From Raillietiella orientalis (lineage: Eukaryota), in the NCBI GenBank assembly GCA_036172245.1, contig JAYWIR010000024.1, forward strand, positions 1,798,001-1,862,000: a stretch of 64,000 bases of DNA, given 5' to 3'. Of this stretch, positions 9,515-63,189 are shown in pieces (within the stretch, counting starts at the first letter, position 1; the number at the start of each line of letters is the position of its first letter). Below the pieces are notes generated by a model. That model saw only the letters and a program-made list of their open reading frames with translations. It was not told the origin of the DNA and searched no databases. Position numbers and translations under genes: made by a program.

Positions 9515-10160
9515 AGCCGTCGGAGGCCGCACGGCTGCGGTGTATCCGCGCGTGCTACCAGGCGTCGCGGGTTCGAACCCCAACCGCGGGAGGCATATGT
9601 ACCCCGAGAAAGGCAGGGCGTCGTGGGCTTTCGAGCCCCTCCTCCGGTTGATCTATTCGGATGCGGCACTGGGGAAGCCGGGAGGCCTCCGTCGACGGGC
9701 CGCCGGGATGGGAAGTTGATCTTCCGAGGTCTCTTCCAGGAGCCCTTGGGGGTTTCCCCTCTGCTTGTGAAAATGGAGCTGTCCCCCCTTCGGGAAGGGG
9801 GGAGGGGACTCTCCATCGCGTTCCATGGAGCTGGTTGATGTCTCTCCAGAGTGTCAAGAAGCGCTGCTCCCTTCGGGGAGCGCCCATCAGGGAAATTTGG
9901 GAGCGTCCCCTTCGGGTGTTCTCTGCGGAGAAGAGAAATTCAGGAGCGGATCTTTTCCGGGTTCCCTTCGGAGAAGAAGCAGGAGTGACCTCCTCCTGAG
10001 GGGTTCCTCCGGAGAGAATAAGAAAGAGGTTTCCCTCCCAGGCGTCAAAGGGAACGGACTTCCTTCCTCAGGAGCCTTCCTGGATTCATTGGGTGGTCCC
10101 TTCACGGGTAGTGCACCCCCCTCAACTTTGAAGAGTTAACACGCACCCCTGGGTAGTGTG
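9515..10160 (+). mobile_element. tRNA-headed SINE-like repeat, copy A (empty site)
   Basis: B-box GGTTCGAACCC 9570-9580; body collinear with the copies at 15.7-16.0, 17.7-19.0 and 56.1-57.3 kb (GGGAT.GGAAGTTGA, ATGGAG.TGGTTGA, CCTTCCTGGATTCAT, GAAGAGTTAACACG). Confidence 0.7.
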
Positions 10161-10749
10161 GGCAGTGTGTTTAAAGAGGGCTTCAGGAGCCCCCAGGAGG
10201 CGGTTCTTGGCGGCAAGTGGCGGAACCGAAAAAAAAAGGGAAGACCCGAAAAAAAAAATAAAAAAAAGCTGGAAAGAAAACAGGGAAATAAGAGGAACCC
10301 AAAAAGGGAATCATCATTCCGTCTTCCCGTGGGTCGGTCGCTCCTGACCTTTTTTTTTTTAAAAAAAGAAAAAAAGAAAAAAGAAAACAAAAAAGAAAGG
10401 GGTCATAGGACAAGCCGTTTCTCAGCCAAAGAATTCACCAACTGCCACCCGATCCGCAGCAGCATGTTGCCCACTGGCAGAGGGCGCATTCCTTTTTGCA
10501 TATGCAGTTGTTTCTGATTTGGGAAGAGCGTTGCAGACGGATTCGGATCTGGAGGTCGCTCAAGCCGACTGCGAGCAGAAGGATGCGGTGCGATTCCCGC
10601 TTCCTTGAAAAGATGGCACCTCGGTGCACACGGGCAGGTTTCTGCGAAGATCGGAAGGGATCAGGATAAAACTCCGGTGAAGAGGATCCCCAAACCGCCC
10701 GCTCCTTTAAACCGGGAAAGGAGGAGGGAGAGTTCGACACACATGCTGT

Positions 10750-15719: not shown

Positions 15720-16020
15720 CTTCCCTCCGCCCGAGGCAGTTCATTTTTACGACAGGAGGGGAACCCGAAGGGAACTGGTGCTCCCTGATTCCCGGAAGGA
15801 CGTCAGAGAGTCAACTTCCAATCCCAAATCCGGTCAGCGGTGGCACCCGATTTCCACCAGTGCCACATCCGAATAGGCCAACCAGGATCATCTTGCGGGA
15901 GGACTCGTAACCCACGATGCACCCCCTGTCCTCGGTGTCTACCTTTCCCCCGGCGGAATTCGAACCCGCAACTCTTGGTGCCGCGCGGAGACCGCAGCGG
16001 CGCGGCTGCCAACGCGTTTC
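15720..16020 (-). mobile_element. tRNA-headed SINE-like repeat, copy B (empty site)
   Basis: Minus strand: A-box-like TGGCAGCCGCG 45 nt before B-box GGTTCGAATTCC (15955-15966), then CTGGTTGGCCTATTCGGATGTGGCACTGGTGGAAATCGGGTGCCACCGCTGACC as in the other copies. Confidence 0.7.
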
Positions 16021-17699: not shown

Positions 17700-18980
17700 G
17701 TCGAGAAATGGGCACGTCGAGTTCTTCTCGTAGGATGACGCTGGTTGGCCTGTTCGGATGCAGCACTGGTTGACACCCGGTCACACCGGGACGTTTACTT
17801 ATAAAAAATAAACGCTTATGGCAGGACGTTTGATCTTACCATATTACTTATAAATATGAGAGAAGGAACCTGCCGGGAACTGGCACGCAGGCAAGCGGGG
17901 TTCCCCTCGGCAGCACAGGAGAAGGGGGGAACAACAAAAATAAAAAAATAAAATAAAACAAAAAACATACAGTCAAAAAATGGGGAGTTTCGGGAAAGGA
18001 TCACTGTGTGCTGGAGGGTGGCCTCCGCATCCTTGTAAGGATGCCGGCAAGTTCCTGTTTCAACACTCCCAGATGAGACCATTTTGACGTTATCCTCTTG
18101 AAGAGTACAGCAAAATGGATGGCGTCTCTGTCGTTCCGGCCTTCTCTGGCGTTGCTCCATGAAGCCACGGTCCCGCCGCGTGGACAGGGTAGTGCTGCTA
18201 GGGATGCGGCCGTCGTGAGGACGTCGCGCAGGAAGAGGCGCTTCGAAACGTCTCTGGCGTTGCTGCCGGGGGTTCCAAGAGTGGCAGCAAAGAGTCCCTC
18301 AAGGGAACGGAGGGCAACACAGTCCACTAGGAGGTGTGGGAGGGATTCCTGCTCCCCGCACCTTGCACAATTTGAGTTCACCCCTTTTTCCCCGTGTCCA
18401 CAGATGGCGGCGGACGCTGCACGGGAAGTCTCAGTGCAGCAGCAGCAGCGCCGACTCCTGTCACTTTAAGGGGAGAGGGCGGTGCTGGTGGAAGCCGGGT
18501 GCCACCGCTGACCGGCCGGGATTGGAAGTTGACTCTCCGGGGTCCTTCCAGGAATCAAGGAACCGTTTTCTTCCGGTTGGGAAAATGGGGCTGGTCTCTC
18601 TCTCGAAGGGGAATCTTCCATTGCGTATTATGGAGCTGGTTGACACTCCCCTCGGGGTGTTCCCTTTCCAGAGGGTTAGAAGTGCGCTGCTTCCTTAGGG
18701 ATTCACCCTTTGAGTACATTTGGAAGCGTCCCTTCGGGACTCTCTTTAGAAGCGGAAAGCAAGGAGAGGCTCCCTTGCGGGTTCCCTCCAGAGAAGATTC
18801 AAAGGTCCCTCCGTAGGGAACAAGGAAGAGGTTCTCGTCGGGGTTCCCTCTTAGGAGTAAGAGGACTAAGGAGTAAGAGGAGTAAGAGAGTCTTCCCTCC
18901 GAAACCTTCCTGGATTCATGGGGTGGTCCCCTCCCGGGGTGCCCCTGTCCTGAAGAGTTAACACGTATCCCCACGTATCT
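17700..18980 (+). mobile_element. SINE-like repeat copy C (head eroded) carrying an antisense LINE 3' fragment
   Basis: Collinear with copy A except for 719 extra nt (17771-18489). Confidence 0.75.
17771..18478 (-). mobile_element. 5'-truncated L1/Tx1-like 3' end with intact CCHC zf-RVT motif
   Basis: ORF 18381-18001 NSNCARCGEQESLPHLLVDC (C-x2-C-x7-H-x4-C), then a T-rich 3' UTR; flanked by an imperfect 11-nt direct repeat. Confidence 0.8.
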
Positions 18981-19109
18981 CCACAGTGTTGAAGAGCCAT
19001 TAAACGAACGGTTCTTCAGCATCTGGATATCCCTCCCCCCTCCCTCCCCGCCCCTCGAAAAAAAAAAATCGCAAAAAAGGAGAAAGCAGGAAGGGAAACA
19101 GAAAAGAAG

Positions 19110-28100: not shown

Positions 28101-28977
28101 GTAATTTTTTCCGTTAACTATCAATCAGTAGCACGAGTAGTTATTTATCATTTCGTTTGTTGTTCCTGACCCCGCCTACGTCCAGTGTTACGGTTGTGTT
28201 GGGCCTTCCAAATGTGCCCCAGTGGTTTTGCCTCTGTGAGTTTGAGTGCTCGCGCCTTTTGAATCGGCGGTGCCTATTCGCATCTTCAGAAATTGAAATT
28301 TCGTGTTTTGTCCAGTTTCTGAATGTCTTCTGTGGATTAAGGGGTAGCTATTCTGCCTAGAAAGTGCTGCATGCTATGGGTATGTCGTTTTTCCAAGCAT
28401 ATTTTGCAGCAAGCGCTTATGGAAGCTACAGAGGTTGAATTCTCAAGATTAACTAGAGCATGCTTATCTCCAGAACTTCTTGCATCGAGGATTGATCATT
28501 AAGTGCATGCGGTAATTTATCTAGAAGCATAATGAGCAAGGCATGAATTCCTTTTGAATGGGAAATTGCATTCCTTACAGTGTCATTAATATTCATGCAG
28601 TATCCTTATAATCTGTTGGAATGTTACTGTATTGAGCTGTTGTGGACCCGTTGATTGCTTTTTTGAGAAAAACTACTTAAAACTTGAACTGGTGTTTCCA
28701 TATCGTATACCCTACCAACATGGCAAGGGTTGATCTTGAACTGAATCATTATAAAATTCAAAAACGAAAATCTTATTTCGGTCACAGTGTTTGTGTCAAA
28801 GGATTTGTATCTGTGTTCTTTTGGGAACATCCACTAATCTAAGATTTTTTTTTCTCTTCCAGAGATTTTTAAATGTTTTTGAAAGTTTTTGATCGAGCAG
28901 ATTCTCGATGCATCTTTAGAAACACAAGTTGTTTCACTGTATTGTGCTATTTGGATGAAGATTCATGCTGACAGTAT

Positions 28978-30868
28978 ATGGGAGTCATGTCAGAAGATTT
29001 GTCGAATGAGACTGACAACCTAAACGAACTTTTTCCACGCTGTAAGCTGATAACGCGAAAGACAGAATATTTGCAAAAAGCGAAGAATCCTACAGAGTCG
29101 GTCTTGGAAGCACTGTGTGAACAGACGCACTTCAGAATCTGTGATGATGGTGATCGTAATCAGACTGATAGCAGCGAGTCGATATCATCGAATGCGAATT
29201 TTCAAAACTGCATCTCAGACAGCTCTCCTGTATTTCAAAAAGTGATTTGTAGAAATAAGGCTAAAGCGTTTCGAACTGAAAGCAAAGAAAATGCTGACGG
29301 TGAAGCGAATATGTCTGAAAATGCACGCAAACCTTGGAGGAAAAGTTGTGACGATTCACTGTTCTCCCTCCGTTCCATAGATGTAATCGAAAATACCTGC
29401 CGCACCTTTGATAACGCTTCCAATCAGAATGGTGAGCTCTGCGGTTACGACTCGGATCCTCGGCTGCAAGAGGAATACTCAGTCCGAAAAAAGCTGAATA
29501 GGCTTGGTCTTCCTCACAACGAAAATGGGGTTGTTTCGGCCAACTACCCTTCTCACCGCGGTGTTGTGCCCTGCTCCACAGAAAATCCGAAAAGCACTCC
29601 AAAGTCATATAGGGAAACCGTATTCGGAAAGGAAGTGTTTTCGTACATCCAGCTTCTTCCTCAGTCCGAAAGCAGCGGTAGCTCTGAGGTTGTGTTCGAT
29701 GACATCAGCAGCATTTCTGGAAGATTCGCTTCTCGCGTTTTCAAGAAAGTGTGTGATTCCTGTGCTGGAACAGATTCGGATTTATCGGATGGTGGATCTG
29801 GCATCGGTGAACTCGCGACGAACTCTTGCTCATCTCTCACCACTTCAAGGAAATCGGAATCCTCGGAGTCGCAGAGTAAACTCGAAGTGTCTTGTTGCGA
29901 AACTGATGTGCGTTTTTCTGGAGACTCCAAGCAATCGTGTGCCATTGACCCTATTCAAATAGCTCAGTACGATGGTTCTCCCAAACGTTATAAGCCCAGG
30001 ATCCGACACGCGGAAAGTAGCCACAATTTTCCTATTTTAACAGTACTCTCTCACGATTCTTCTTCATGGGAAGATCCGACAAATCAGGATGGCGAAGAAC
30101 AAACAGCCGAAGTTGTTGGGCAGCTGCTACATGAACAACAGTCACGGCTGTCGCCACAGTGTGAGCATTCTGCGGAAGCAAACGGTTCCAGAAAATCAGG
30201 GTGCAAAGTGTTCGGTGGAATGGGAGACTCTTACATAGGGAAAAGACTAGCCGAAGTTAAGGATAACGGAAATCAGGTCCACTTAATCGCGGGCAAGAAC
30301 AGTGGGCCCGAATCCCACGTGCACCGCTCTTTACCCAGCAGTTCTTCGAAGGAATTCGTGTGCCATTGTCAGGACTTTCCTCATAAGCCATCTTCCAGAG
30401 AACTCGGTGGTAATAACCTAAGTACCAGTGGGGTAAAAAAATCAGTATTCACTGCAGATCTCACATCTTCACCGGAAATCACGAGCTCTCGTCCAGAAGT
30501 GGAAAATGAATCTTCAGCTGGAGACATTACTGATGAAAATGTGATACTCAACAGCTTCCCGGTTTTGGAAGATGGCTTATCTTCCGGAAACGATGAAAGC
30601 GATAACGAAAATTCATCCCTGAATTCCACGAATACAATCGAAATCTTTCTTAAGAGACAAATAAAAGAAATTGAGCAAATTTCCAAAAATTCGAAAGCCT
30701 GTGTAGACATGCTGCCCAGCTCAAGTCTTTGTGTTTCGTCGTCTCCGCCGGTGGCTCGTTCTCCAGAAAAACACTATCTGTGTCTGAAGGAGGTTAAAGA
30801 TTTTCTGAGCAAAAACGCTGTTGTGCTGCAAGATTTTGAACAAGAACTGAGTAGTCTCGACCCCTCAG
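28978..30868 (+). CDS. lin-10: lin-10 large N-terminal coding exon (Ser/Glu-rich, probably disordered)
   Basis: 651-codon ORF in AT-rich DNA; polypyrimidine/AG acceptor at 28861-62; donor CAG|GTAAGG at 30869 in phase 1; contains [11 protein letters not shown], resembling a motif I recall from invertebrate X11-like proteins. Confidence 0.8.
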
Positions 30869-33800
30869 GTAAGGTAGCTTCTCTTGCTCATGATGTTTGT
30901 AGAGCGCAGCCTCTTGATTCATTTCCATCTTGAGACGATTCGGATTGAAACTTAAAACTAAAAAAAAAAAAAAATTTGATCTTCGAAAAAGTCTCTCATT
31001 TGATCGACCCGTTTTCTACAAACGTGCTTTGGCTATGTGAAAATCATATTTTTATTTTTATTTTTTTTCCAAAAGGATCCATTAGAAGCATTCCTCTGCC
31101 AATGTTTAATCCGCATCAGATCCGTCTCAGAATTCTTTTTTTTTTCTTGTTTTTTCCCGACTGTTGGCCGTTGCACACTCGAGTTTTAGCTGAATGTAAA
31201 GTGTATGGGCGCATCTGAAAACGCATCAGTTTCCCTTGGTCAACTCGATGCTTTATCAAATGCCCTGAGAACCAGGATTGATGGATAGCTTATCAGACAG
31301 TCAAGTCGTTCATCATTTAACCCTGCCGTGTCCCATAAGTGAGCAACTCTCATGATTTGTTAAAAGAGGAACATTGCAATCCGTTTGAATTTGCCGTGAT
31401 TGAGCATGAAGAATTATTTTATAATTTGTGCATGTTGTTGAGTATTGTAAAAGAGTTTGTAAATGATAGGTTTTTTTTTATATGTATATATATAGAGAAT
31501 TCAGCTCTGTCGTGTCACCCACATGAAAACGAAGTAATGAGGAGTTCTAATGGTAACATTGATGAGATACTCAGTGATATAAAATCCGCTATCAGAAGGT
31601 CTAATTCTTTAAAAGTAAAATCTCTTTCAACTTCTTCTTCGCTGTCGGGATCTTCAGATATTTGGATTCCAAGGTTGGAAAGCTATTTAATTTCAAAATA
31701 TTCTTTTTTAAAAGAGAATCATGTTTCTTAAGTTTTACTTGATTACTCTTCAATTTTTGGCTTGTTTTCAAGTAAAAAGCCATCTTAGCAAAATTTAACG
31801 TTCAGACTACTTCTGTATGGCTTTTCAGTTTCCTTCGCCCTCACGAATGAATTTTTTTTTTTTTTTTTTTCCAACTCGTTGGTTAACTTTTCAGGAACAA
31901 GACGGATCGGTCCAAACTTATAGATTTGATCCGAAATGCGGAATTCCCATCGAACGAAGATTTGGAAGTGAAGCATAATGGAGACGATGTGGAAGGTAAT
32001 CCTGTTCCCATCCCGTATGCCACCCCAGCAGCAGTGTGTGTGTGTGTGTGTGTGTGTGTTTTTAACACCGTGATATTTCAGAAAGCCTTATCTGTAATCA
32101 TATTTATGTAATCTCATGATCACATTGGAAAAAAAAAAACAGACTTGAATGCAAGTACGTTTGAGTCGTTCAGGTGACTGCTGGAGATCGAATGGTTCTA
32201 TAATATATATATATATGTATATAATTGAGTAAGAACTTGTAGTAAGTTGCATCTCGTAATGCACCCTATAAGTGTGGTGATCATCCCGTACTTATGCATT
32301 GCTTGTTTAGGATTCATGTAATTAAAACCTGGTGAACCGGATCGGCTACTGTTACTTGAAAATCAGAATGACCAAAAGCGAAATTACGAAATGGTCACCT
32401 GCACCTCCTCCTCCTACTGTACGAAATAATCCTCTCGAGGATAGCCAAAACGTGCCTGCAAATAGGGAATTTTCTTATTATCCAGAACGCTGTCAGCAGA
32501 GTACACCGCACACGAGTGTTTCGTGTACGGAGTGCATCTGGTTCGCAGTTTCTCACGGCGCTTTTCAAATCACTTTCTTGTACTCTCTTCTTCCTTGTTT
32601 TGACACGATCTTCAAGCCCTCCGGGAGACAGCCAGGTACACACCTTGCAGCAGTGATGATGATTCCAAGAACCGAAAGGCCAGGGAAGAACAGTCGGTAG
32701 CATTCGCTCCAAACAGCAGTTCTCTTTATGTGAAAGTTATCGAATGGGCATGCAAGAGTTGTTGTTTTTTTTTTTTTTTTTTTCGTTTTCATGCGATTTA
32801 TTAAAGATAATAGAATTGTTTTGCTTTTTTTGTTTTTTCCTTTTATACGGCTGCAATAAAGGTAATGCGAGTGGTGATGAAATTATTTTAGTGCGGCATA
32901 AACCAACATCGGAAACCATGCAGTCGGTTGATGACTGTTGAGCTGGGCTCATCTCAGTTGTGGGAATGAATTATTCCCATTTGTGTGAGCCCTTCCTGCC
33001 TTGTAAAAGGGGAGTCGGATCTGCAGAGTTTTCCCGTATGCAAACACATATTTTCGTTTTTCTTTTTTTGGTTTTACGGCGTCATGGCGTCGTCGCCGGC
33101 TTTATAGAACTTTTCCAGATTGACGAATTCATAACCGATACGTAACATATATTTAAGTACATTGCGCTGCTCTTGGAACCGAAATTCGACCCATTTCTCA
33201 ATACAGCTTTTTGGAGTTTAATGGGTTTGGCCAGCGACTTCTACGTGCATACCCTCTTTCAGCCATCAGCCAGCGGTATTCTTATAACCCCGCGTGCTTC
33301 AAGTTGCATCCCAGAAAAGTACCAAAATTCATTCGTGTAGTGTGTCGGTAAACCGTGTTGCTTACGCAGTGCATATTCCGTTTCGTGGAATGCAAGAAAA
33401 ATGGATATCGGAGTAATGTTTTTGGCGACGGAATCGTTCCAAACACTTCCTTTGGCCTTCGTTAACGTTTCCGTGCTTTCTCCGACTCGGTCGTCCTCGC
33501 TGAAACTCTTGGGCGGCGGGCACGTGGTCTGCTTGTTGCTCATTTTCGTGCTCTCGGATTTAAAATGACCAGTGGTACTGTTTTCGAGTCTTTGATTCAT
33601 CGGTTTCCTACTGATTCTGATTTGATTTACGGCTTTCTCCCCCCCCCCCCCCCTACCCTCACATTTCAAGTTTGCGTCAAACCGATGCCGCAGAGGCTGT
33701 GGGTTCCTTTTTCATGTCATCTGCGATTCTTGGTATAATTTTCAGTTTACGGTACGACGTCAAAGAAGGTAAAAACGGTTGATTTCATAGATGATGATGG

Positions 33801-40000: not shown

Positions 40001-43000
40001 TTTTCTGTCCCAAGTCCACTGTATGTATGTTCTGATGGTGACTTCAGCTCCCGGCAGTGTGTCCTACATGCTCATTAAAAGAAATAGAATGATATTCCAT
40101 TTGTTTAGAGGCGCGAATTTCACGAGCAGGCAGTCGTAAACTCTTTGGTAACTCTGTGTACCGTTGCTTAATGACGGAAGCCTGAATTGGTCAGCTTGGT
40201 GTGAAAATCTGTATATCGCATGACGTAAACTTGGTACGAAAATTTACAAAGAAGCTACAAAGAAACTTGCGAAATCCACACTGCGTTCGATAGCTTGGTC
40301 CTCAGAGATTCTGTTTTGAAAGAAGACGAATTTTTTTTTTTTTTTTTAAAAAAAAGAAAATCCCGTTGATTCGGATGGCTGGGGAAGGGGACTTTTTAAT
40401 GGCCCGTTTTTATTTATCTCATTTTTTCTCCTTTTTGCTTCAACTTTCATTCATCGTTCTAAGGTATAGGAAATCCTCCAAAGCTTGCTGATGGATCCGT
40501 TTGCAAACTGAAGAAAAGACAGAAGTGATGAATTGGGCAGATGCGCTCGATCTTGGTCCGGATACCGCGGGCTGGTTGAAGCTGGAGACCAAATCCCTCC
40601 TGTACTCTTTTGCTTCAAAGACCGCTCTGAGGACACGATTTCTGCCGTGGTGCTCGACTTTATGCGAAAACAGTTCTAAAAATCCTGCATGTGTTGTGCC
40701 TCGTGTGTGTGGCTTACGGGATGTAGGAATGACGCGATTGCATATCGCAAATGTGGGGATCACGTAAAGACCGCCTGTGATTTCTGCTCGTGGGATCGTC
40801 GAAACGGGAACGTCTGGTAGCAAGTGAAATCTTAGGCTGCTGCTATGCAACCAGGAACTTGTGAGAGACGGGCCTTGTAAGAAGCAGCTGCCACGATGGC
40901 CGAAGTTATTCTCGAGTTCCCGGAACGCATAGAATATTGCCTGAAAGATATTCGTGAAGTGAATATTTAAGAGAAACGTTTCCTGTTGGGAATCGGTTTT
41001 GTTAGGAGGATTCTTAGCGTTTCCATGTGAGAAAATAAAAAAAAAGCTTCTGCAAAACGTGAAAGGGTTTCCCATCCTCAGAATTCCGTAGCTGAAACGA
41101 CGTCCGTTGGCGAATTTCTCTTCGCTCGAGCCGTTCCCCCGGCATTACCACCGGCCTCGGAGTATTTCGAATAATTGGAGCAAAGAAGATGTGCGAGAAT
41201 GTGATGAATCCAAATGTTTCCCAATTTTTTCGTTTTTTCCCCTGCGCCTGCCTTTGTGGGCTGTTCGCTGGTTGTTCACTTTCTAAGATGTCTCCGCTTG
41301 ATGCGCCCCGATTGCGGAGGAAGTGCGTTCTTTCGATGACTCTTCTTCGTCGGTAGGAGGAGCGCGATTTTTGCATCGGCCCGGAGATGAATGAACTTCC
41401 CCGTCGGCGTTTTGCTTTCGACGCCAGTGGTGTTCCCGCCACATCTCATGCGATGTCTTCCCCTTTTAAATAATTTCGTCTTTTTCTTCTTCTTCTTAAT
41501 CTGCTCGATCGTGATTGTATTAATACATATATCATTCCTCATAATATACATGTTATGTTTCATTGCTGCTGCTGGTGTAGGCCCTGGTAAGTTCAAATCT
41601 GTAGCAGTATATTGCCTGTTTGTTTTTGAGCTTACACTCTTTCAATTAGCATATCTTATATAGGACTGGCAGATTACTTAAGCGTCAGCTATCAGCTAGT
41701 TTACCGTGTGTTTCATGAACGACACACATGACATGTAATCAAATGCACTTTCGCAGCTCGTAGTTGTTGATGTTCGCTTTTGCTGCTTTTTTTTTTTTTT
41801 TTTTTTTCGAAAATTGTGTTGTTTTCCACATCATTTGAATTTTTGCATGTTCCTTTGCAAGTCTTTAAGACTAGCTGCACGCATTTAAGATATTTTACCT
41901 GCTATTCCGCTCAAATTGCTAGTTCATTCCTGAATGAATGTGGTCGAGCCTATTGGTATCACGCAACTACCCGATTCCAATCTCAGGTTCCAGCTGGAGA
42001 AAATCAGCCGAATACGGAAGTAGATCTGTTCATCTCCACAGAGAAAATCATGGTACTCAACACTAGTCTCAAAGTACAGATTCGTATTTCCTGTTTTATG
42101 TTTTAATAAGCCATCCTCTGCTTTAAGGAAATTATGATGGATCATGCATTGCGTTCCATTTCTTACATCGCGGACATAGGCGACGTGGTTGTTCTCATGG
42201 CAAGGAGGAGGATAACGTCGTCTGTGGATGGTACCCCTTCGTTGAGCAAAGCTCCAAAAATGTTGTGCCACGTGTTTGAAAGTGAAGAGGTCTGTGTGCC
42301 GGGAACTGAAAACATCTCATTTTCCTTGTTTCCCTTTACAGGCGCAGTTCATAGCTCAGTCCATTGGTCAGGCCTTTCAGGTTGCATATATTGAATTTCT
42401 GAAAGCTAATGGTATCGAGGATAATAATTTCGTGAGGGAAATGGATTATCAGGAAGTTTTAAATTCTCAGGAAATATTCGGCGACGAGTTGCGGATGTTT
42501 GCTTCGAAAGAAATGCAAAAAGAGGTACCATTCTAACTTTTAAGTAAGGGTAATCTCTCCCCCCCCCCCCTTTCCCCTTTTATCCTTCAAGGTCATCGTT
42601 CCCAAAACGAAGGGAGAGATCTTGGGAGTCGTCATCGTAGAATCTGGCTGGGGCAGCATGCTCCCGACGGTTGTCATAGCAAATCTTTCTCCTTGCGGAG
42701 CAGCTGCTAGGTGCAATCAGCTTAACATCGGCGACCAGATCATCGCGATAAATGGCGTCAGCCTTGTAGGTCTTCCATTAAGTAACTGCCAGCACTATAT
42801 CAAGGTACATATGTATATACATGTATGTACGCATGTATATATCGGCGTAATGGCGGATTGCTTCATGTTGTCTTATCAGAATGTAAAGAATCAGACAGCT
42901 GTTAAGCTTACAGTTGTTCCTTGCACACCTGTGGTAGAAGTTCGTATCAAACGTCCCGACACCAAGTATCAGCTCGGTTTTTCCGTACAGAACGGCGTAG

Positions 43001-43329
43001 TGAGTCTCACCATGAGTGTGGACCCATCGTGATTCCATGAATTTCTGTCTAGTAGATCTGTAGTTTGTTGCGGGGTGGAATTGCCGAAAGAGGAGGAGTT
43101 CGTGTGGGTCACAGGATCATTGAAATAAACAACCAAAGCGTGGTTGCCGTGGCCCATGAAAAAATCGTAAATCTCTTGGCCACGTCCATCGGAGAGGTAG
43201 AAAGCGTGTGAAATTCGCTCTAGCACTGAAAGGGGGTGGTGGTGGCTCTTCTTCTAGATTTACATGAAAACCATGCCAACCTCGATGTATAGGCTGTTGA
43301 CAGGGCAAGAGACTCCCATTTACATCTAG
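28978..43329 (+). CDS. lin-10: LIN-10 / X11 / Mint (APBA-family) adaptor protein; join(28978..30868,31496..31673,31895..31995,35872..35951,37076..37115,38256..38398,41987..42073,42128..42289,42342..42524,42592..42804,42880..42999,43056..43196,43258..43329), ~1136 aa
   Basis: Unmistakable Mint PTB ([17 protein letters not shown]...[16 protein letters not shown]...[16 protein letters not shown]), PDZ1 ([25 protein letters not shown]), PDZ2 ([36 protein letters not shown]) and C-terminal tail [14 protein letters not shown]. All introns are GT-AG and exon phases sum to 3411 nt. The N-terminal exons are less certain than the PTB/PDZ exons. Confidence 0.93.
31496..31673 (+). CDS. lin-10: lin-10 exon with CASK/LIN-2-interaction-like segment
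   Basis: TAG acceptor 31493-95, donor AG|GTTGGA 31674, phase 1->2; encodes [15 protein letters not shown]...SDIWIPR, similar to Mint1 DIKEAI...EPIWVMR. Confidence 0.78.
31895..31995 (+). CDS. lin-10: lin-10 linker exon
   Basis: TTTTCAG acceptor, AAG|GTAATC donor, phase 2->1 matching neighbours; open frame [33 protein letters not shown]. Confidence 0.7.
35872..35951 (+). CDS. lin-10: lin-10 exon ([26 protein letters not shown])
   Basis: TTTAG acceptor, AAG|GTTCGT donor, phase 1->0; the [14 protein letters not shown] motif is one I recall from invertebrate X11L proteins. Confidence 0.8.
37076..37115 (+). CDS. lin-10: lin-10 40-nt basic micro-exon ([13 protein letters not shown])
   Basis: CCTTCCAG acceptor, strong AAG|GTAAGG donor, phase 0->1 bridging into the PTB exon. 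Confidence 0.72.
38256..38398 (+). CDS. lin-10: lin-10 PTB domain exon 1
   Basis: [47 protein letters not shown] acceptor (alternative same-phase CAG ending 38276), AAG|GTAAAC donor. Confidence 0.95.
41987..42073 (+). CDS. lin-10: lin-10 PTB exon 2
   Basis: [32 protein letters not shown] acceptor, GT donor at 42074. Confidence 0.95.
42128..42289 (+). CDS. lin-10: lin-10 PTB exon 3
   Basis: [28 protein letters not shown]...[11 protein letters not shown]; preceded by a 54-nt intron. Confidence 0.95.
42342..42524 (+). CDS. lin-10: lin-10 PTB C-terminal helix and PTB-PDZ linker exon
   Basis: [27 protein letters not shown]...[18 protein letters not shown]; preceded by a 52-nt intron. Confidence 0.95.
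42592..42804 (+). CDS. lin-10: lin-10 PDZ1 exon
   Basis: [32 protein letters not shown]...[25 protein letters not shown]. Confidence 0.95.
42880..42999 (+). CDS. lin-10: lin-10 PDZ1 end / PDZ2 start exon
   Basis: [40 protein letters not shown]; donor GTGAGT at 43000. Confidence 0.95.
43056..43196 (+). CDS. lin-10: lin-10 PDZ2 exon
   Basis: [47 protein letters not shown]. Confidence 0.95.
43258..43329 (+). CDS. lin-10: lin-10 terminal coding exon
   Basis: [26 protein letters not shown], the conserved Mint C-terminal PxYI tail. Confidence 0.95.
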   Translation: MYMKTMPTSMYRLLTGQETPIYI

Positions 43330-51864: not shown

Positions 51865-52550
51865 GGCCCGACTCCCAAGAAAGCGGGTTCGAAACCCGCT
51901 GCCGCGAGCAGCGCGTCCGCCTCGAGCGTATGGAGCGACCACGCGTCGCGGCACGGGTAGCTCCGAACGATGCCGCCTTTGCGCCGCCCCAAAGTCTAAA
52001 ATGTGCTTGCCCCAAACCTTGGGAATAAAATGTCGGGGAGCGTAGCTTCTCTGGACCTCTTCAGCCGTTTCTGGGAGGAAGGGGGAGGGGTGCCCTCTCC
52101 CCTTCTTTCCTTTCCCCCCTTCCTCAGTTTTCGGAATCCTCAAACTTGAAGATCGCCTTTACCTGCGCTGCAGGCGGCGACGTTGCGTCCGCTCACAGGC
52201 ATCATTCGCATGCAGCTTCCCGTCGTCAGGCGTCGAGTTGCTGGGCTCCCCGGGCCTTGCGAGGCCTCTCACACAGCTCCGTATTCCCGCTCAGCGGGCT
52301 GGGAGGCCTTCTGCGTCCTGATAGGAGGCTGCATCCCGGGGAACTGAAAAGACTCCTCCTCGGACTCCTCGGACGCATCCTTTCACCATATCGGGAGGGG
52401 ACGTGGCTACTTCGACGGAGAGGTGCGTTGACTTCCGCCCGCCTGCCTTCCTGTTGGCAGAGGACGCCGGCTCGTTCCCCTGCCTATGCCCGACTCCCAA
52501 GGAAGCGGGTTCGAAACCCGCTGCCACGAGCAGCGCGTCCACCTCGAGTT
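51865..52550 (-). repeat. Two ~60-nt near-identical segments 622 nt apart (51865-51926, 52487-52548), probably ORF1 N-termini
   Basis: GACTCCCAAG(A/G)AAGCGGGTTCGAAACCCGCTGCC(G/A)CGAGCAGCGCGTCC(G/A)CCTCGAG occurs twice; the minus strand reads LE(A/V)DALL(A/V)AAGFEPA(F/S)LGVG. Confidence 0.7.
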
Positions 52551-52799: not shown

Positions 52800-55500
52800 G
52801 GCGCACCTCGCGCGACCACCCTTCCGAGTCCTTCGCCTGGCGGACGAGGGATTCACCGATGCGTGAGGGGGAGTGGCGCTCGAAAGTCAGAGGCCTCCCG
52901 TCCTTCCCGGAGAGCAGCGCCATGCTGCGGGGAGGCGCTACCTCCAGGGGATCGCGGGCGGTCGATCGGAAGGCAGCCCTACTCGAGGTCACCCGTACCA
53001 GTCGCACACGGTGAATCGCCCCAACTCCAGATCGTGTGCGCCCCCGATTTGGTGGCCTTCATCTTCATCGCAATCATCCCTGGTCGCCCTCCAGGCGCGA
53101 CGGCTGGGAGCGGCCTGGAGGCTCTGTCAGCACGGGTCTCGCTCCGCGGATGCGGCGGGAACGGAGGAGGAGTGCTTCTTCCCTCCAGGAGTGCGCGGCC
53201 TCCCGCACGGATGCGGACTGCAAGAGGCACCCACGATGCCTGCACCCCGACCAGCGCGGCCGGCTGTCGGATGGGCAGCGGCAACCACATCACCTAGGAC
53301 GACTTCGGCGGACGCTTGTCAACGGGCGCCCAACTTCCGGAGAAAACTCAGGGAGGGAGGTGCTGCTTCCGGAGAATGCCGCTGCGGCGGGGTCCTCTCT
53401 CCTGGTCCCTTCGGACAGGTCGATTTCAATCTTAGGGAGGCGAGCGATTTTCAAGCGGGTCTGCAATCTCTCCAGTGATCTCACGTCTGTCACTGCTGTT
53501 GCACTTTGCTCCGCTTTTCTTGGTCCTCTTGGCGCGGGACATTGAGCTGCTGCAGGCGCAAAATCCAAGCAACCGGGTGAATGCGACTCCTTCGACGTAG
53601 ATGATGATGAACCTTCCGCACAAGAGAGCGGTGGCGGAGGGGTTGGAGGCTGTCACCCTGCATCCATCCTCTGAGTGCCTCCGCCCCGCGTTCCTCTTCA
53701 GCTTTCCGAGCGCGGGCAGCACCCCCGCGAGACGGGGGGTGCGTCGCACACGCGTGGGAGACGCGCGGTCTTGCGCGCTGCAACGCATTCTCTCAGCCGC
53801 TGAGCACTCCCGCATCCCGCTCTCGCCGGAGGCAGCAGGCAGACATCCCGACGATCCGGCAGACTGAGTCGAGGGAGACGAGACAGGAAGCGCCGGCGGC
53901 CCTCAACGGTCCATCCGAACAAACGTGCGCTCCGGAGCACCACCACACCTCGATGTTCGCCCACCCCACGCTGGAAGGACCAGGGTCGAAAAGGCCATCC
54001 GCTGGCTCCCCTCCAGGAGCGCCCGCGGCCGCTTGCACTACCACCGCAAGGTCGTTGCCTGCGGCTCCGCCCAGCTGCCCCGCAGGCGGCTGAGGCCTTC
54101 GCGGAGCCGTCCGTCGAGACAGAGGTCGCGGCACCAAGACCTCCTTCCTTCCGCGCTCAGGTGGCACTCTACCCTCCCAGTGCCCCAGAATGGGGTCAGG
54201 CCGGCGCTTTACCCTCTTTCCACCCCTGTCTGTGGAGCCTCCGAGGGCCTCTACTGCGTCCCTGAAGGGATAGACGGCGATCTCTGGTCCCTCTCCATGT
54301 GGCTCCAGTCTGGGGTGGGGCGTCGAGTCGACTCCAGGCGCGGACCGGCTGTGGAGGGTCCGCACCAACCGAGACCGGGGGCCCTTCTGTGCCACCTCTC
54401 CCTCCCTCACTCGTCGCTTGCCTGCTCCCGGCGGGCACGCGCCCGCTGTCCCGTCCCTCAGTCGATGGCCGACCGGAGCCCTCGCGTGAATCCTCCGGGA
54501 AGCGGACTGCTGGAGCGGCAAACCGGAGCGGCACAGACGAAGTTTCGGGATCGCTTGTACCCCTCTGTGAGATCGGCCCCCTCGGGGTGTCCCATCACGC
54601 AGCCGGGGGCACGGCTGACCGCGCCGGGGAGCACCCGGATCAGTCCGACCCCATGCGAGGGCCGCTCCAGCGCGTCTGAGCGTCTCCCTCGTCGAGCTGC
54701 CGCAGGTCTTCTCACATTCCACGGGCGAACCCGAGCTGCCCGGGTCGGATCAAGCGATCTCCGCCTGGAGGGGGTCTGAAGGTGCCACCGCAAGGAGGCA
54801 CCGAAACGCTCCTGGGCTGAGACCCTCTCACGCGTCTGCGGCCACGTGTTGGGTGCCGGTCGGGGAGTGGCAAACGCGCGGCCAGAGGTCATCCACGCGA
54901 GAGCGTGGGTGCCTCGCCAAGCAGCAGCTCCCTCCGCACCAGGAGGGCATGGAGCCGCTCCCCATCACCTCAGCAACCGCAGCAGCGCCGTCGGCGTCCC
55001 ATAGAGAGTTGGTTTCCGAATGCCCAAGGCGACGAGGAGGGAGCGACCGATCCGCTCGTCTGTTTCGTGGTTTCCCTCAAGGGATTCGGCTGCGTGGCGC
55101 GGCTCTGGCCCGACCCGGAAGCCTCACGCCCGCTGCCGCGGCTCCGGGCGGCGTGGCGAGAGGCGAGGGGGTCAGCCTCGGCTTCCCTTTCGCGTCCATC
55201 TCTCTCTTCCTCGCAGGCGGTATCCAGGCAACTTGCTCGCGCAGAGATGCCTCGGCCAAACCACTCTGGAAGGCGCAACAAACTGGGGGGATCCACGTGG
55301 GAGCGGCTGCGTGGAAAGTGGTCGAGTGGATATCCGGAACGTACTTCTCGCGGCTCCACTTTCCATACGCAGGACGCGGCCTTCCAGGCTCCTACCCCAT
55401 GAAGCTTCCGGATCGACGGAGGACCATCGGGCAGCCCTCGCGCCTCACTATCCACGCAACGGAGGACGCCCTCCCGACGTGAGTGCGGACCACCGGTTTG
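52800..55500 (+). mobile_element. Near full-length but heavily decayed and internally deleted L1/Tx1-like retrotransposon
   Basis: Ordered relics: ORF1 (IPGRPPGAT...LEALSA...RMRT), APE end (SDLTSV...GAGH*), RT (PSEQTCAP; PVPQNGVRPALYPLS; SAPTE at the YADD position; SPRVNPPGS; EIGPLGV), thumb (LPPHQEGM) and zf-RVT region (WERL...QDAAF...TEDALP). Confidence 0.55.
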
Positions 55501-56109: not shown

Positions 56110-57330
56110 CCAGCCTGCGTTGGGTGGATGCGTGGCTGCGGTCTCTGCGCATGGCACCGAGCGTCGCGGGTTCGAATCCCACCCAGGGTCGACGCCGAGA
56201 AAGAGGGATGCGTCGTGAGTTTGGACTCCCCCCATAAGATGCTGGTTGGCCAATTCGAATGCAGCACTGGTTGACACCCGGTCATGCCGGGGCGTTTCTT
56301 CATAAAAGAGTAAATGTCTGTGGCAAGACGTTTGATCCTACCATATTACTTATAAATATGAGAGAAGGAACCTGCCGGGAACTGGCACGCAGGCCAGCGG
56401 GGTTCCCCTCGGCAGCACAGGAAAAGGGGGGAACAACAAAAATAAAAAATAAAATAAAACAAAAAACATACAGTCAAAAAATGGGGAGTTTCGGGAAAGG
56501 ATCACTGTGTGCTGGAGGGTGGCCTCCGCATCCTTGTAAGGATGCCGGCAAGTTCCTGCTTCATGACTCCCAGATGAGACCATTTTGACGTTATCCTCTT
56601 GAAGAGTACAGCAAAATGGATGGCGTCTCTGTCGTTCCGGCCTCCTCTGGCGTTGCTCCATGAAGCCACGGTCCCGCCGCGTGGACAGGGTAGTGCTGCT
56701 AGGGATGCGGCCGTCGTGAGGACGTCGCGCAGGAAGAGGCGCTTCGAAACGTCTCTGGTGTTGCTGCCGGGGGTTCCAAGAGTGGCAGCAAAGAGTCCCT
56801 CAAGGGAACGGAGGGCAACACAGTCCACTAGGAGGTGTGGGAGGGATTCCTGCTCCCCGCACCTTGCACAATTTGAGTTCACCCCTTTTTCCCCGTGTCC
56901 ACAGATGGCGGCGGACGCTGCACGGGAAGTCCCAGTGCAGCAGCAGCAGCGCCGACTCCTGTCACTCTAAGGGGAGAGGGCGGTGCTGGTGAAAGCCGGG
57001 TGCCACCGCTGACCGGCCGGGATTGGAAGTTGACTCTCCAGAGTCCTTACAGGAATCAAGGAGCCGTTCCCTTCCTGTTGGGAAAATGGGGCCATCCCTC
57101 CCCTCGGGAAGGGAGGGGACCCTCCATCGCATTCCATGGAGTTGGTTGATGCCTCTTCAGAGTATCAAGAGCACTGCTCCCTTCGGAGAGCGCCCTTCAG
57201 GGGAAACTGGGAAATGTCCCTTCCGGGTTCTCTCCAGAGGAGCAAACAAGGAACAGGTCCTTTCCAGGTGGATCCTCCTGGAGAGGAAATTTCAGGAGCA
57301 GATCCCTTCCGGGTTCCCTTTGGAAAAGAA
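56110..57330 (+). mobile_element. SINE-like repeat copy D carrying an antisense LINE 3' fragment
   Basis: B-box GGTTCGAATCCC 56169-56180; the same 719 extra nt (56272-56990) as copy C. Confidence 0.8.
56272..56979 (-). mobile_element. 5'-truncated L1/Tx1-like 3' end with CCHC zf-RVT motif (duplicate of 17771-18478)
   Basis: ORF 56882-56502 is almost identical to 18381-18001. Confidence 0.8.
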
Positions 57331-57359
57331 AGAATGAGGATGCTGCGTCAGCAGGAAGA

Positions 57360-61957: not shown

Positions 61958-62790
61958 TGGCGACGGTGATCGAAAGCGGCTACGGTGATTGGCGGTGGTG
62001 GCTGTGACCACGGTAGCCGTGGTGGTGGTGGTGCTCGTGATCGATGGTTAATGTCTGAGATGGTGACGGCGGATATGACGATGACGAGGGTGAGGGACGA
62101 GAGGGGCGGTGGTGTTTATGTTGATGGTGATCGATGGTCGATGGGTGATGATGACAATTACGACCACCATAACGAGATGATGATGATGACGACGAGAGTG
62201 ACAGTGATGGTGGTGATGATACTGACGATGATGGTGTTGGTGGTAGTGGTCGTTCTGGTTGTGGCAGATTGATGGTTCCAACGATGAAGATGACGACGAC
62301 GAAGGTGACAGTGGCGGTGGTGCCTGCTCGTGATCAATGGTTAGTGACTGATGACAACGATGGATATGAGGATGACGACGATGACCATAAGACATGAGAT
62401 GATCAGAAGGAGGGTGACAGTGATGGCGGTGGTGCTGACCAATGATGGTGACGGCTGTGGTGGTTGTTCAAGCCGTGATCGATAATTGATGACACCGACG
62501 ATATGATAATGGTGATTGCAGTGGTAATTGCGCTGGTCGGGATCGATGGTTAACGACTGCGATGGCGACAGTGGGTATGATGATGTCGATAGAGGCGGTG
62601 GTGTTTGTGTTGCTGTTAGCGACGATATGATGATGCGGACCAAGACGACTACCATGACAACATGAGGATGATGTTGACAATGACAGCAGTGGTGATAGTG
62701 GTGGTGGTAATACTGACCAGTGATGGTGACGGCTGTTGTGGTTGTGTCGATCATGACCGATGGTCAGTGGCTGTGATGACGGCGGTTGGA
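61958..62790. repeat. Complex (GAT/GGT/GAC)n satellite with higher-order units
   Basis: Trinucleotide-based low complexity with recurring landmarks GTGATCGATGGT, GACCAT.A and CTGACCA.TGATGGTGACGGCTGT. Confidence 0.9.
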
Positions 62791-63189
62791 TGCAAGTATG
62801 GCGGCTAATGAGATGTTTGTGACGTTTCATGGTACAAGGAGGGATGCCTCCTCCCCCGCCAGTTCAGCCAGCTCCAACTCTTCCCCTCCCACAGTGTGTG
62901 CAGCTCTTCTCTTTGTTCCGGTAGAGGTTCGACTGCTCCCACAGGGGGCATCTCCCGTTCTTCCTCATCAAAATCGTCCAGTGCCCGCAACACCTCCTCC
63001 AGGACTGCAGATGCACGAGGGCATCTCCCGTCGCCACGAACGTCGTCTCCACTCAGAGGAGAGGGACGCCTGCTACTGAGACGGTCGTCGTCATCTGCGC
63101 GTCAGCGAAGATCTCGATCGCTCGGAGGCTCCGAGCAGGCTGACCCGCGCTGCAAGACAAATGAAATGTCGCCGCGCGTCGACTTTCCG

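Follow-up and report, generated by a model that had tools for sequence, protein, structure and literature searches.

Recurrent local gene conversion between already filled SINE copies as the probable source of a near-identical pair of LINE inserts

The two near-identical LINE inserts considered here, which sit in diverged copies of one SINE-like repeat, belong to a system that is no homing element but works as non-allelic gene conversion among transposon copies. Recurrent, local conversion between copies that were already filled very probably explains the pair, which offers a clean view onto an effect seen across the LINE family, and it is the reach and frequency of that effect, not the pair, on which the weight of the finding rests. 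The DNA analysed (‘the window’) is a stretch of 64,000 nucleotides, positions 1798001-1862000 of contig C24 in a 210-Mb assembly, and holds four copies of the repeat: A and B, which are empty, and C and D, which are filled. Their parts are given below, with the basis of each assignment in brackets.

9515-10304, + strand: empty SINE copy A, near full length, with an A-rich tail (repeat search, host alignment)
15735-16016, - strand: empty SINE copy B, reduced to its 5' part, with an intact target site (repeat search)
17717-17770, + strand: SINE copy C, recognisable 5' remnant (alignment; left duplication copy at 17760-17770)
17771-18478, - strand: 5'-truncated LINE in C (family search, junctions)
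17837-18539, no strand: homogenised tract in C (alignment to D)
18479-18489, + strand: right target-site duplication of C (junction analysis)
18490-19068, + strand: 3' part of SINE copy C, with a terminal A-run (host alignment)
56111-56271, + strand: SINE copy D, 5' part with tRNA-like head, ending at the LINE target site (other contigs give repeat coverage from 56111; host alignment)
56261-56271, + strand: left target-site duplication of D (junction analysis)
56272-56979, - strand: LINE in D, putatively L1/Tx1-type, truncated at its 5' end and antisense to the SINE, with its 3' end at 56272 (family search, junctions)
56272-56338, - strand: 3'-terminal 67 nt of the LINE in D, not homogenised, three small indels (C/D alignment)
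56339-57040, no strand: homogenised tract in D (98.3% identity with C, then 88% as far as 57090)
56502-56966, - strand: end of LINE ORF2, a 154-aa open stretch with a Cys/His knuckle remnant (67% identity to the ORF2 end of LINE copy L090)
56980-56990, + strand: right target-site duplication of D, which C shares unchanged and which overlaps the LINE-target microhomology (junction analysis)
56991-57340, + strand: SINE copy D, 3' part, truncated (right-flank alignment)

The host is a short, non-coding, high-copy repeat of ~790 bp with an A-rich 3' tail (the best 40 of 4090 first-look candidates were scored). We take a motif at 56169-56179, in the SINE head of D, to be box B-like, and presume both a box A-like and a box B-like motif in the host alignment; a search for a tRNA in the head returned neither an ARAGORN hit in the window nor an Rfam tRNA hit.

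As the original prediction for this DNA had it, inserts C (17771-18489) and D (56272-56990) share length and endpoints and show about 23 differences: each is 719 nt long, and 23 alignment columns differ. Half of the differences had been placed in the first 50 nt; they do cluster at the start (13 of 23), but over the first 67 nt (17784-17836). It had been overlooked that these initial 67 nt are alike at the family background only (79% against 77%, with 45% of 405 pairs equally alike), and that the ‘insert’ ends in 11 nt that belong to the target-site duplication, as its second copy. The homogenised tract begins 67 nt within the insert, and along it (17837-18539 against 56339-57040) 12 of 703 columns differ, an identity of 98.3%. 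High identity had been described for some 30 nt to the left and 50-100 nt to the right, and so it is: the left flank (56238-56271) stands at 88% (30 of 34 nt; family background 69%), a likeness equalled by 0.9% of 230 other pairs, and the right flank at 96% for its first 50 nt, then 88% for another 50, values each equalled by 0.2% of 594 pairs. Farther out the SINE bodies diverge, again as described, the right flank past 100 nt falling to 59-64%, which is the background level. The claim that D there is nearer to empty copy A than to C stands for raw identity at 57091-57230 (79% and 76% against 60% and 64%) and is reversed at 57231-57320 (D-A 56% against C-D 59%, with C-A at 69%); since D-A likeness departs little, if at all, from background, what shows is the greater decay of C, D being not specially A-like, and we rejected this closeness as a signal.

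What decides between conversion of filled copies and homing is the distribution of derived changes, scored against the majority state of 21 other LINE copies. Over insert positions 1-67, C and D share no derived change and carry 7 and 5 private ones; over positions 68-707 they share 56, with 9 private (Fisher p 8e-9 against positions 1-67). The LINE 3' ends of C and D have decayed independently for the whole age of the family, and both sites were therefore filled before the tract arose. The proposal that ectopic gene conversion made the two alike is upheld by this near-identical tract, which is set within older, diverged homology and marked by shared derived changes; the proposal that the cargo was copied into a pre-existing empty SINE, in the manner of homing, fails at the left junction, which lies outside the tract (0 shared against 12 private changes). 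Co-conversion of the right flank is present, and the left flank is cut off from the tract by the 67 independent nucleotides. Its 34 nt hold two shared derived changes, one of them also found in A and B; the left-flank likeness may be a small separate patch or a subfamily likeness, and is the main residue favouring an old, wider event.

The pair does not stand on its own. A third copy, inverted and away from a SINE site, lies 31 kb beyond D and matches it at 94-100% over insert positions 144-543 (95-99% at 56421-56800) and at 64-88% elsewhere; a fourth, 56 kb upstream of C, has the derived states of positions 290-480 in common with the others and carries more private change (copy E, for which the stretch 290-480 was used, its first 240 columns being misaligned). 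The differing tract limits and ages in this four-copy network point to repeated events.

To look beyond it we took the 40 LINE copies that best match D and called ‘twins’ any two with a 200-column window at 92% identity or more, a cut-off set post hoc (the best cross-contig pair reaches 91%). Such a window is present in 12 of 13 same-contig pairs less than 200 kb apart (7.8-158 kb; 3 of these 13 belong to the seed network), as against none of 28 same-contig pairs beyond 200 kb (the nearest at 537 kb) and none of 739 cross-contig pairs, or 0 of 767 with the distant same-contig pairs included; homogenisation thus depends on distance. Eighteen of the 40 copies, on six contigs, have a twin, at 96-100% identity in a LINE family that averages ~80%, and in the LINE tree the neighbours form cherries with 100% support. 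A search with another twin returned its partner, 105 kb off, at 98% and all others at 83% or less (40 scored); one near pair, L136/L137, 64 kb apart, shows no conversion.

Twin partners are independent insertions, in that their flanks differ, as do their 5' ends in at least five pairs (L006/L007, L019/L022, L023/L024, L024/L134 and L014/L141); L006 and L007, for instance, measure 2003 and ~940 bp, with a core at 98-100%. Twins with different 5' ends cannot have come from duplication of a unit. Among the profiled twins, the tract runs past the 5' junction but not the 3' junction in C/D and L021/L025, past the 3' junction alone in L024/L134, and in five it stays inside the insert; the sole one spanning both junctions, L015/L016, is part of a 2.8-kb inverted duplicate that reaches 1.6 kb past the SINE.

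A census of all repeat pairs in a 373-kb region that includes C and D found a window at 92% or more in 20 of 252 pairs within 200 kb and in 1 of 66 beyond, the single distant twin being at 271 kb, direct (11 of 126) and inverted pairs (9 of 126) being alike in this; cross-contig controls gave 4 of 1700 at 90% and 2 of 98 at 92%. For the main LINE subfamily, with the threshold put at 90%, twins were found for 7 of 8 copies and make up 9 of 14 pairs up to 126 kb apart and none of 14 farther; with older subfamilies counted, 9 of 23 LINE copies have one. SINE bodies are rarely homogenised (2 of 14), and an arbitrary 120-kb stretch of contig C5 yielded only 5 repeat pairs and no twins, so that the counts speak for repeat-rich regions. 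Conversion tracts run from ~0.25 to 2.8 kb. Of the 18 high-identity pairs that were profiled, 7 have no match in the LINE, in the SINE or in any fetched locus on another contig, and these LINE- and SINE-free repeats show the same dome-shaped identity profile, high in the middle and low at the edges. Given such repeats, and twins with different 5' ends, the process does not depend on an endonuclease cutting empty sites, and the suggestion that the LINE endonuclease drives it by cutting empty SINEs fell with the finding that LINE-unrelated repeats are homogenised likewise.

Transmission biased towards GC was not seen: strong-to-weak against weak-to-strong changes number 255:97 in twin stems and 841:271 in 22 singletons (p 0.23), so that GC-biased conversion, considered as a sign of continuous exchange, is without signal. 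Loss of mismatch repair as a cause was likewise not supported, MutS domains being found at 7 places and MutL at 3 (presence does not equal activity). By motif we take the MutS loci to be MSH2-, MSH6-, MSH4- and MSH5-like, two of them (L154 and L156) presumably MSH2-like; in the L156/L154 pair, the locus on contig C26 has stops within the match, and may from its sequence be a pseudogene.

Several further observations concern repeats of the region. For a GC-rich, 1.05-kb, low-copy repeat at 53753-54802, the genome gave only four copies, which lie within 210 kb on this contig and are 76-88% alike overall with patches at 97-100%; it is a case of local duplication plus conversion. A 0.73-kb stretch at 1278-2009 recurs in inverted orientation 160 kb downstream, 95% identical with a core at 100%, and is without match in the fetched loci of other contigs. 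Three inverted pairs of 2.1-2.8 kb (L015/L016, L033/L034 and C24:2031535-2040007) show 99.4-99.9% identity, and reflect either very recent conversion or inverted duplication. Contig C24 carries two LINE conversion networks (1760095-1886631 and 1956194-2039939) whose nearest members are 70 kb apart with no exchange between them, a gap that is possibly a domain boundary; a LINE copy at C24:2020235, lying between twins, has no partner. Within the window, a 61-nt direct repeat at 51866-51926 and 52488-52548 (95% identity, 622 nt apart) presumably contains a tRNA-like box B motif, and 62006-62820 is a degenerate tandem region of imperfect, G- and T-rich, 60-90-nt units. CpG is hardly depleted (observed/expected 0.93 across 373 kb). 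Of the window's 93 ORFs, 30 were scanned against Pfam, and a single match came out, to PDZ, in an exon at 42544-43032 (+ strand) that we assume to be Mint/X11-like and that leads us to take the genome for an animal one; together with an open frame of 653 aa at 28972-30933, which has no Pfam match, the exon sits in an AT-richer gene region (32-49% GC) between stretches of GC-rich, repeat-rich DNA.

Read on the minus strand, the insert comprises the end of a LINE ORF2 and a short 3' untranslated part. The ORF2 end (56502-56966) has no Pfam match of its own; that of L090 gives a weak zf-RVT match (E 0.0096). The family is large (the best 40 of 3625 first-look candidates were scored), and among those 40 the unlinked copies average ~80% identity and form a star tree with end branches near 0.1. 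Its longer copies carry broken endonuclease (APE), reverse transcriptase (RT) and knuckle domains (Exo_endo_phos E 5e-4, RVT_1 E 3e-8 and zf-RVT E 0.01, the APE and zf-RVT matches lying under Pfam's cut-off), and a younger sister subfamily gives clear matches over the cut-off, its best solved relative being human L1 ORF2p (E 3e-35; R2 only 1e-12). An L1-like ORF2 with APE endonuclease, RT and C-terminal knuckle is thus recognisable in family copies and sister subfamily together, and the domains and the L1 ORF2p match suggest an L1-group element, for which we use ‘L1/Tx1-type’ as a putative label. None of 113 matches in the homologue search is to a named Tx1 reference, all being at 21-33% identity, and neither this nor the atlas search gave a clade name. 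The insert itself encodes no endonuclease, the long copies are broken, and an intact ORF2 was not found in the 3.6-kb loci of the sister subfamily that were examined.

Some details of these LINEs deserve mention in their own right. In copy L090 (19-891) an internal deletion has left hardly anything between the RT region and what may be a gag-like ORF1 with zinc knuckles; this one internally deleted copy gives a zf-CCHC match upstream of RT (E 0.02). Copies of the sister subfamily (L122-L132) are 90-95% identical to one another, lie in many cases on small contigs, and include some nested antisense inside one another. The LINE 3' end at 56272-56284 lacks a poly(A) tail and starts with a 4-bp inverted repeat around 5 nt, possibly, to judge from its sequence, an RNA recognition hairpin.

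The 3' end could be read in 51 of 59 LINE loci examined, and 38 of these 51 abut the SINE site, 33 at the exact base (both members of twin pairs being counted), which bears out the prediction that the LINE recognises a site in the SINE. All 38 lie antisense to it. The 5' ends are variable, giving lengths of 710-3145 bp, and target-site duplications of 9-16 nt flank 12 of 15 resolved copies (18 tried; up to 3 mismatches were allowed and 7 nt were built into the search). A fixed 3' junction, variable 5' truncation and duplications are the signature of target-primed reverse transcription. One copy (L098) is inserted 10 nt downstream of the main site, ending in the same five bases, and another (L017) occupies a second site further down the SINE that also ends in the main site's five bases; these alternative sites suggest a short core recognition motif.

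The 5' break at 710-733 nt recurs in L005, L011, L012 and L014, on four other contigs, and at that point the LINE sequence resembles the target; microhomology at the 5' junctions of truncated LINEs is known (PMC2912911, in its available sections). With a 3' junction fixed by the target and a recurrent 5' break, the equal endpoints of C and D require no copying. Immediately to the left of the site, the SINEs that host the 710-733-nt class come in three or more length variants, which favours independent insertion. A single origin for the class is not rejected by the trees (p-AU 0.13 and 0.51, with 10 of 40 rows, converted partners, left out); a tree rejection of it (p-AU 9e-95) was discarded, as converted partners confound it.

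Homing would mean that a filled copy was converted into an endonuclease-cut empty SINE with both flanks co-converted, and it could draw on the equal length and endpoints of C and D, on a tract that passes the right junction by 50-100 nt, on the 88% likeness of the left 34 nt, and on a family with an APE endonuclease and a fixed target. As a cause of the present C/D identity it is contradicted by the 67 nt beside the left junction, which diverged independently for the family's full age; moreover, L015/L016 alone among the profiled twins includes both junctions, variable 5' ends and target-site duplications are marks of retrotransposition, repeats free of the target are homogenised as well, and the target site of empty copy B, 1.9 kb from C, is intact. 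A very old homing event, predating the divergence of the copies, would be traceless today; taking all this together, we hold homing to be very improbable. Copying of the composite, by local duplication or re-retrotransposition of SINE plus LINE with uneven flank decay or recombination thereafter, seems to us just as improbable, even with local low-copy duplicates at hand (53753-54802 has its four copies on this contig) and with a single clade for the 710-nt class not rejected. The original prediction had already dismissed a simple duplication of the composite, and rightly so, divergence being non-uniform: identity drops from 98% to background at sharp points within both insert and SINE. Twins with different 5' ends are incompatible with such copying, and the length variants left of the site in the 710-733-nt class also speak against it. 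A newly retrotransposed copy should bring the donor's 3' end, precisely the part that differs, and the independent 3' ends of C and D contradict the alternative of re-retrotransposition that the prediction had kept in reserve.

Tracts and twins were read from assembled sequence alone, and an artefact of assembly or polishing, by which one copy's sequence was written into its neighbour, would agree with twins being local and with some being 99.9-100% identical. Copies 20% apart are not ambiguous for an assembler. Divergence within tracts ranges from 0 to ~10% and is biased towards transitions, the differences left comprising 203 transitions, 86 transversions and 30 indel columns, few of them in homopolymers (14 of 30), as for aged DNA; there are four-way mosaics with different limits, and the 817,967 fetched bases contain not one N. 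We accordingly give an artefact very little credence, and return to recurrent conversion between filled copies as the preferred reading.

On that reading, we propose the following history. Long ago, a target-specific LINE would have inserted antisense, at one base, into many SINEs by target-primed reverse transcription; the insertion pattern is observed, and the enzyme chemistry is presumed from the family. C and D would each have received their own insertion, and their common 5' end may reflect a truncation hot spot at the LINE-target microhomology or later overwriting of one 5' end. Thereafter C, D and the two neighbours (31 kb past D and 56 kb before C) would repeatedly have served as templates for one another, presumably in double-strand-break repair that drew on a paralogue close by and went back to when the copies were young and alike. 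The core may in this way have been kept homogenised, with indel-rich edges such as the A-rich 3' end escaping, and the latest C/D sweep, with 1.7% left against ~20% for the family, would date to about one tenth of the family's age if rates are even. Conversion is reported to drop sharply once identity is down to ~80%, and to require a closely matching stretch of ~200 bp (PMC3924818, available part); with so steep a fall, exchange most likely began in young copies and continued in the core. The twin pairs have, by analogy, probably been held together since youth; fresh conversion between 20%-diverged copies is possible.

The conversion process itself is known; its reach (~130-160 kb) and its frequency are unusual. 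We offer, tentatively and as somewhat less than probable, the reading that most same-subfamily copies with a neighbour within ~130-160 kb have been held at 96-100% for most of their lives in a family at 80%, that is, domain-scale concerted evolution with a cut-off an order of magnitude past the Alu range. The conversion networks may trace chromatin contact domains, and the same templated repair may seed local 1-kb duplicates. Thousands of dead LINEs of the same age, whose 3' ends are fixed and whose 5' ends are independent, provide a natural ruler for non-allelic conversion, for which rate estimates differ by eight orders of magnitude (10.1101/135152, as far as the accessible text goes); this ruler could directly measure dependence on distance, orientation, length and divergence, and its readings could be set against chromatin contact maps. 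In such a genome, a near-identical pair of repeats is no sign of recent transposition.

Homing elements, such as mobile introns and inteins, with WHO elements as a further example, encode a nuclease that sees the empty site, and the whole element is then copied by repair with both sides co-converted. The likeness lies in an element nuclease that recognises an empty site; the difference is that here empty sites are filled via RNA and conversion acts on filled copies. As in Alu conversion, neighbouring dispersed copies are alike beyond their history and tracts lie inside common homology. The effect between neighbouring Alu copies is described within ~10 kb (PMC8230782; PMC6598467; both, in the sections available, citing Aleshin and Zhi 2010) and as declining with distance and divergence (PMC3924818, likewise in part), whereas here twins reach 126-158 kb and tracts extend up to kilobases. 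Frequent conversion can keep copies at low divergence for long (PMC6598467; 10.1101/135152; available text of both), and in human gene duplicates it is said to outpace mutation until escape, with detected tracts averaging 880 bp (10.1101/135152, same portion). Our copies resemble those duplicates in being held together by conversion, and differ in that the duplicates, on that portion of the source, show a strong bias towards GC and a small net effect on divergence, whereas the LINE shows no GC bias and a large effect. The literature searched, with partial coverage, held no report of a comparable conversion range for dispersed retrotransposons and, few subscription journals being included, none of a SINE-targeting Tx1 family. 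Tx1-clade LINEs are known from within other transposons, namely Tx1 in Tx1D, Tx1-Mar in Mariner-N4_AMi and Tx1-9_AMi in Harbinger (PMC4494074, accessible part). To judge from that part, our LINE resembles these families in its APE and RT, in a fixed 3' junction inside a mobile element, in its antisense orientation at the main site, and in having old, decayed copies and target-site duplications; the Tx1 targets given there are DNA or LTR transposons, and the target here is a tRNA-like, A-tailed SINE. A LINE that targets a SINE is, then, a new type of target for a known habit.
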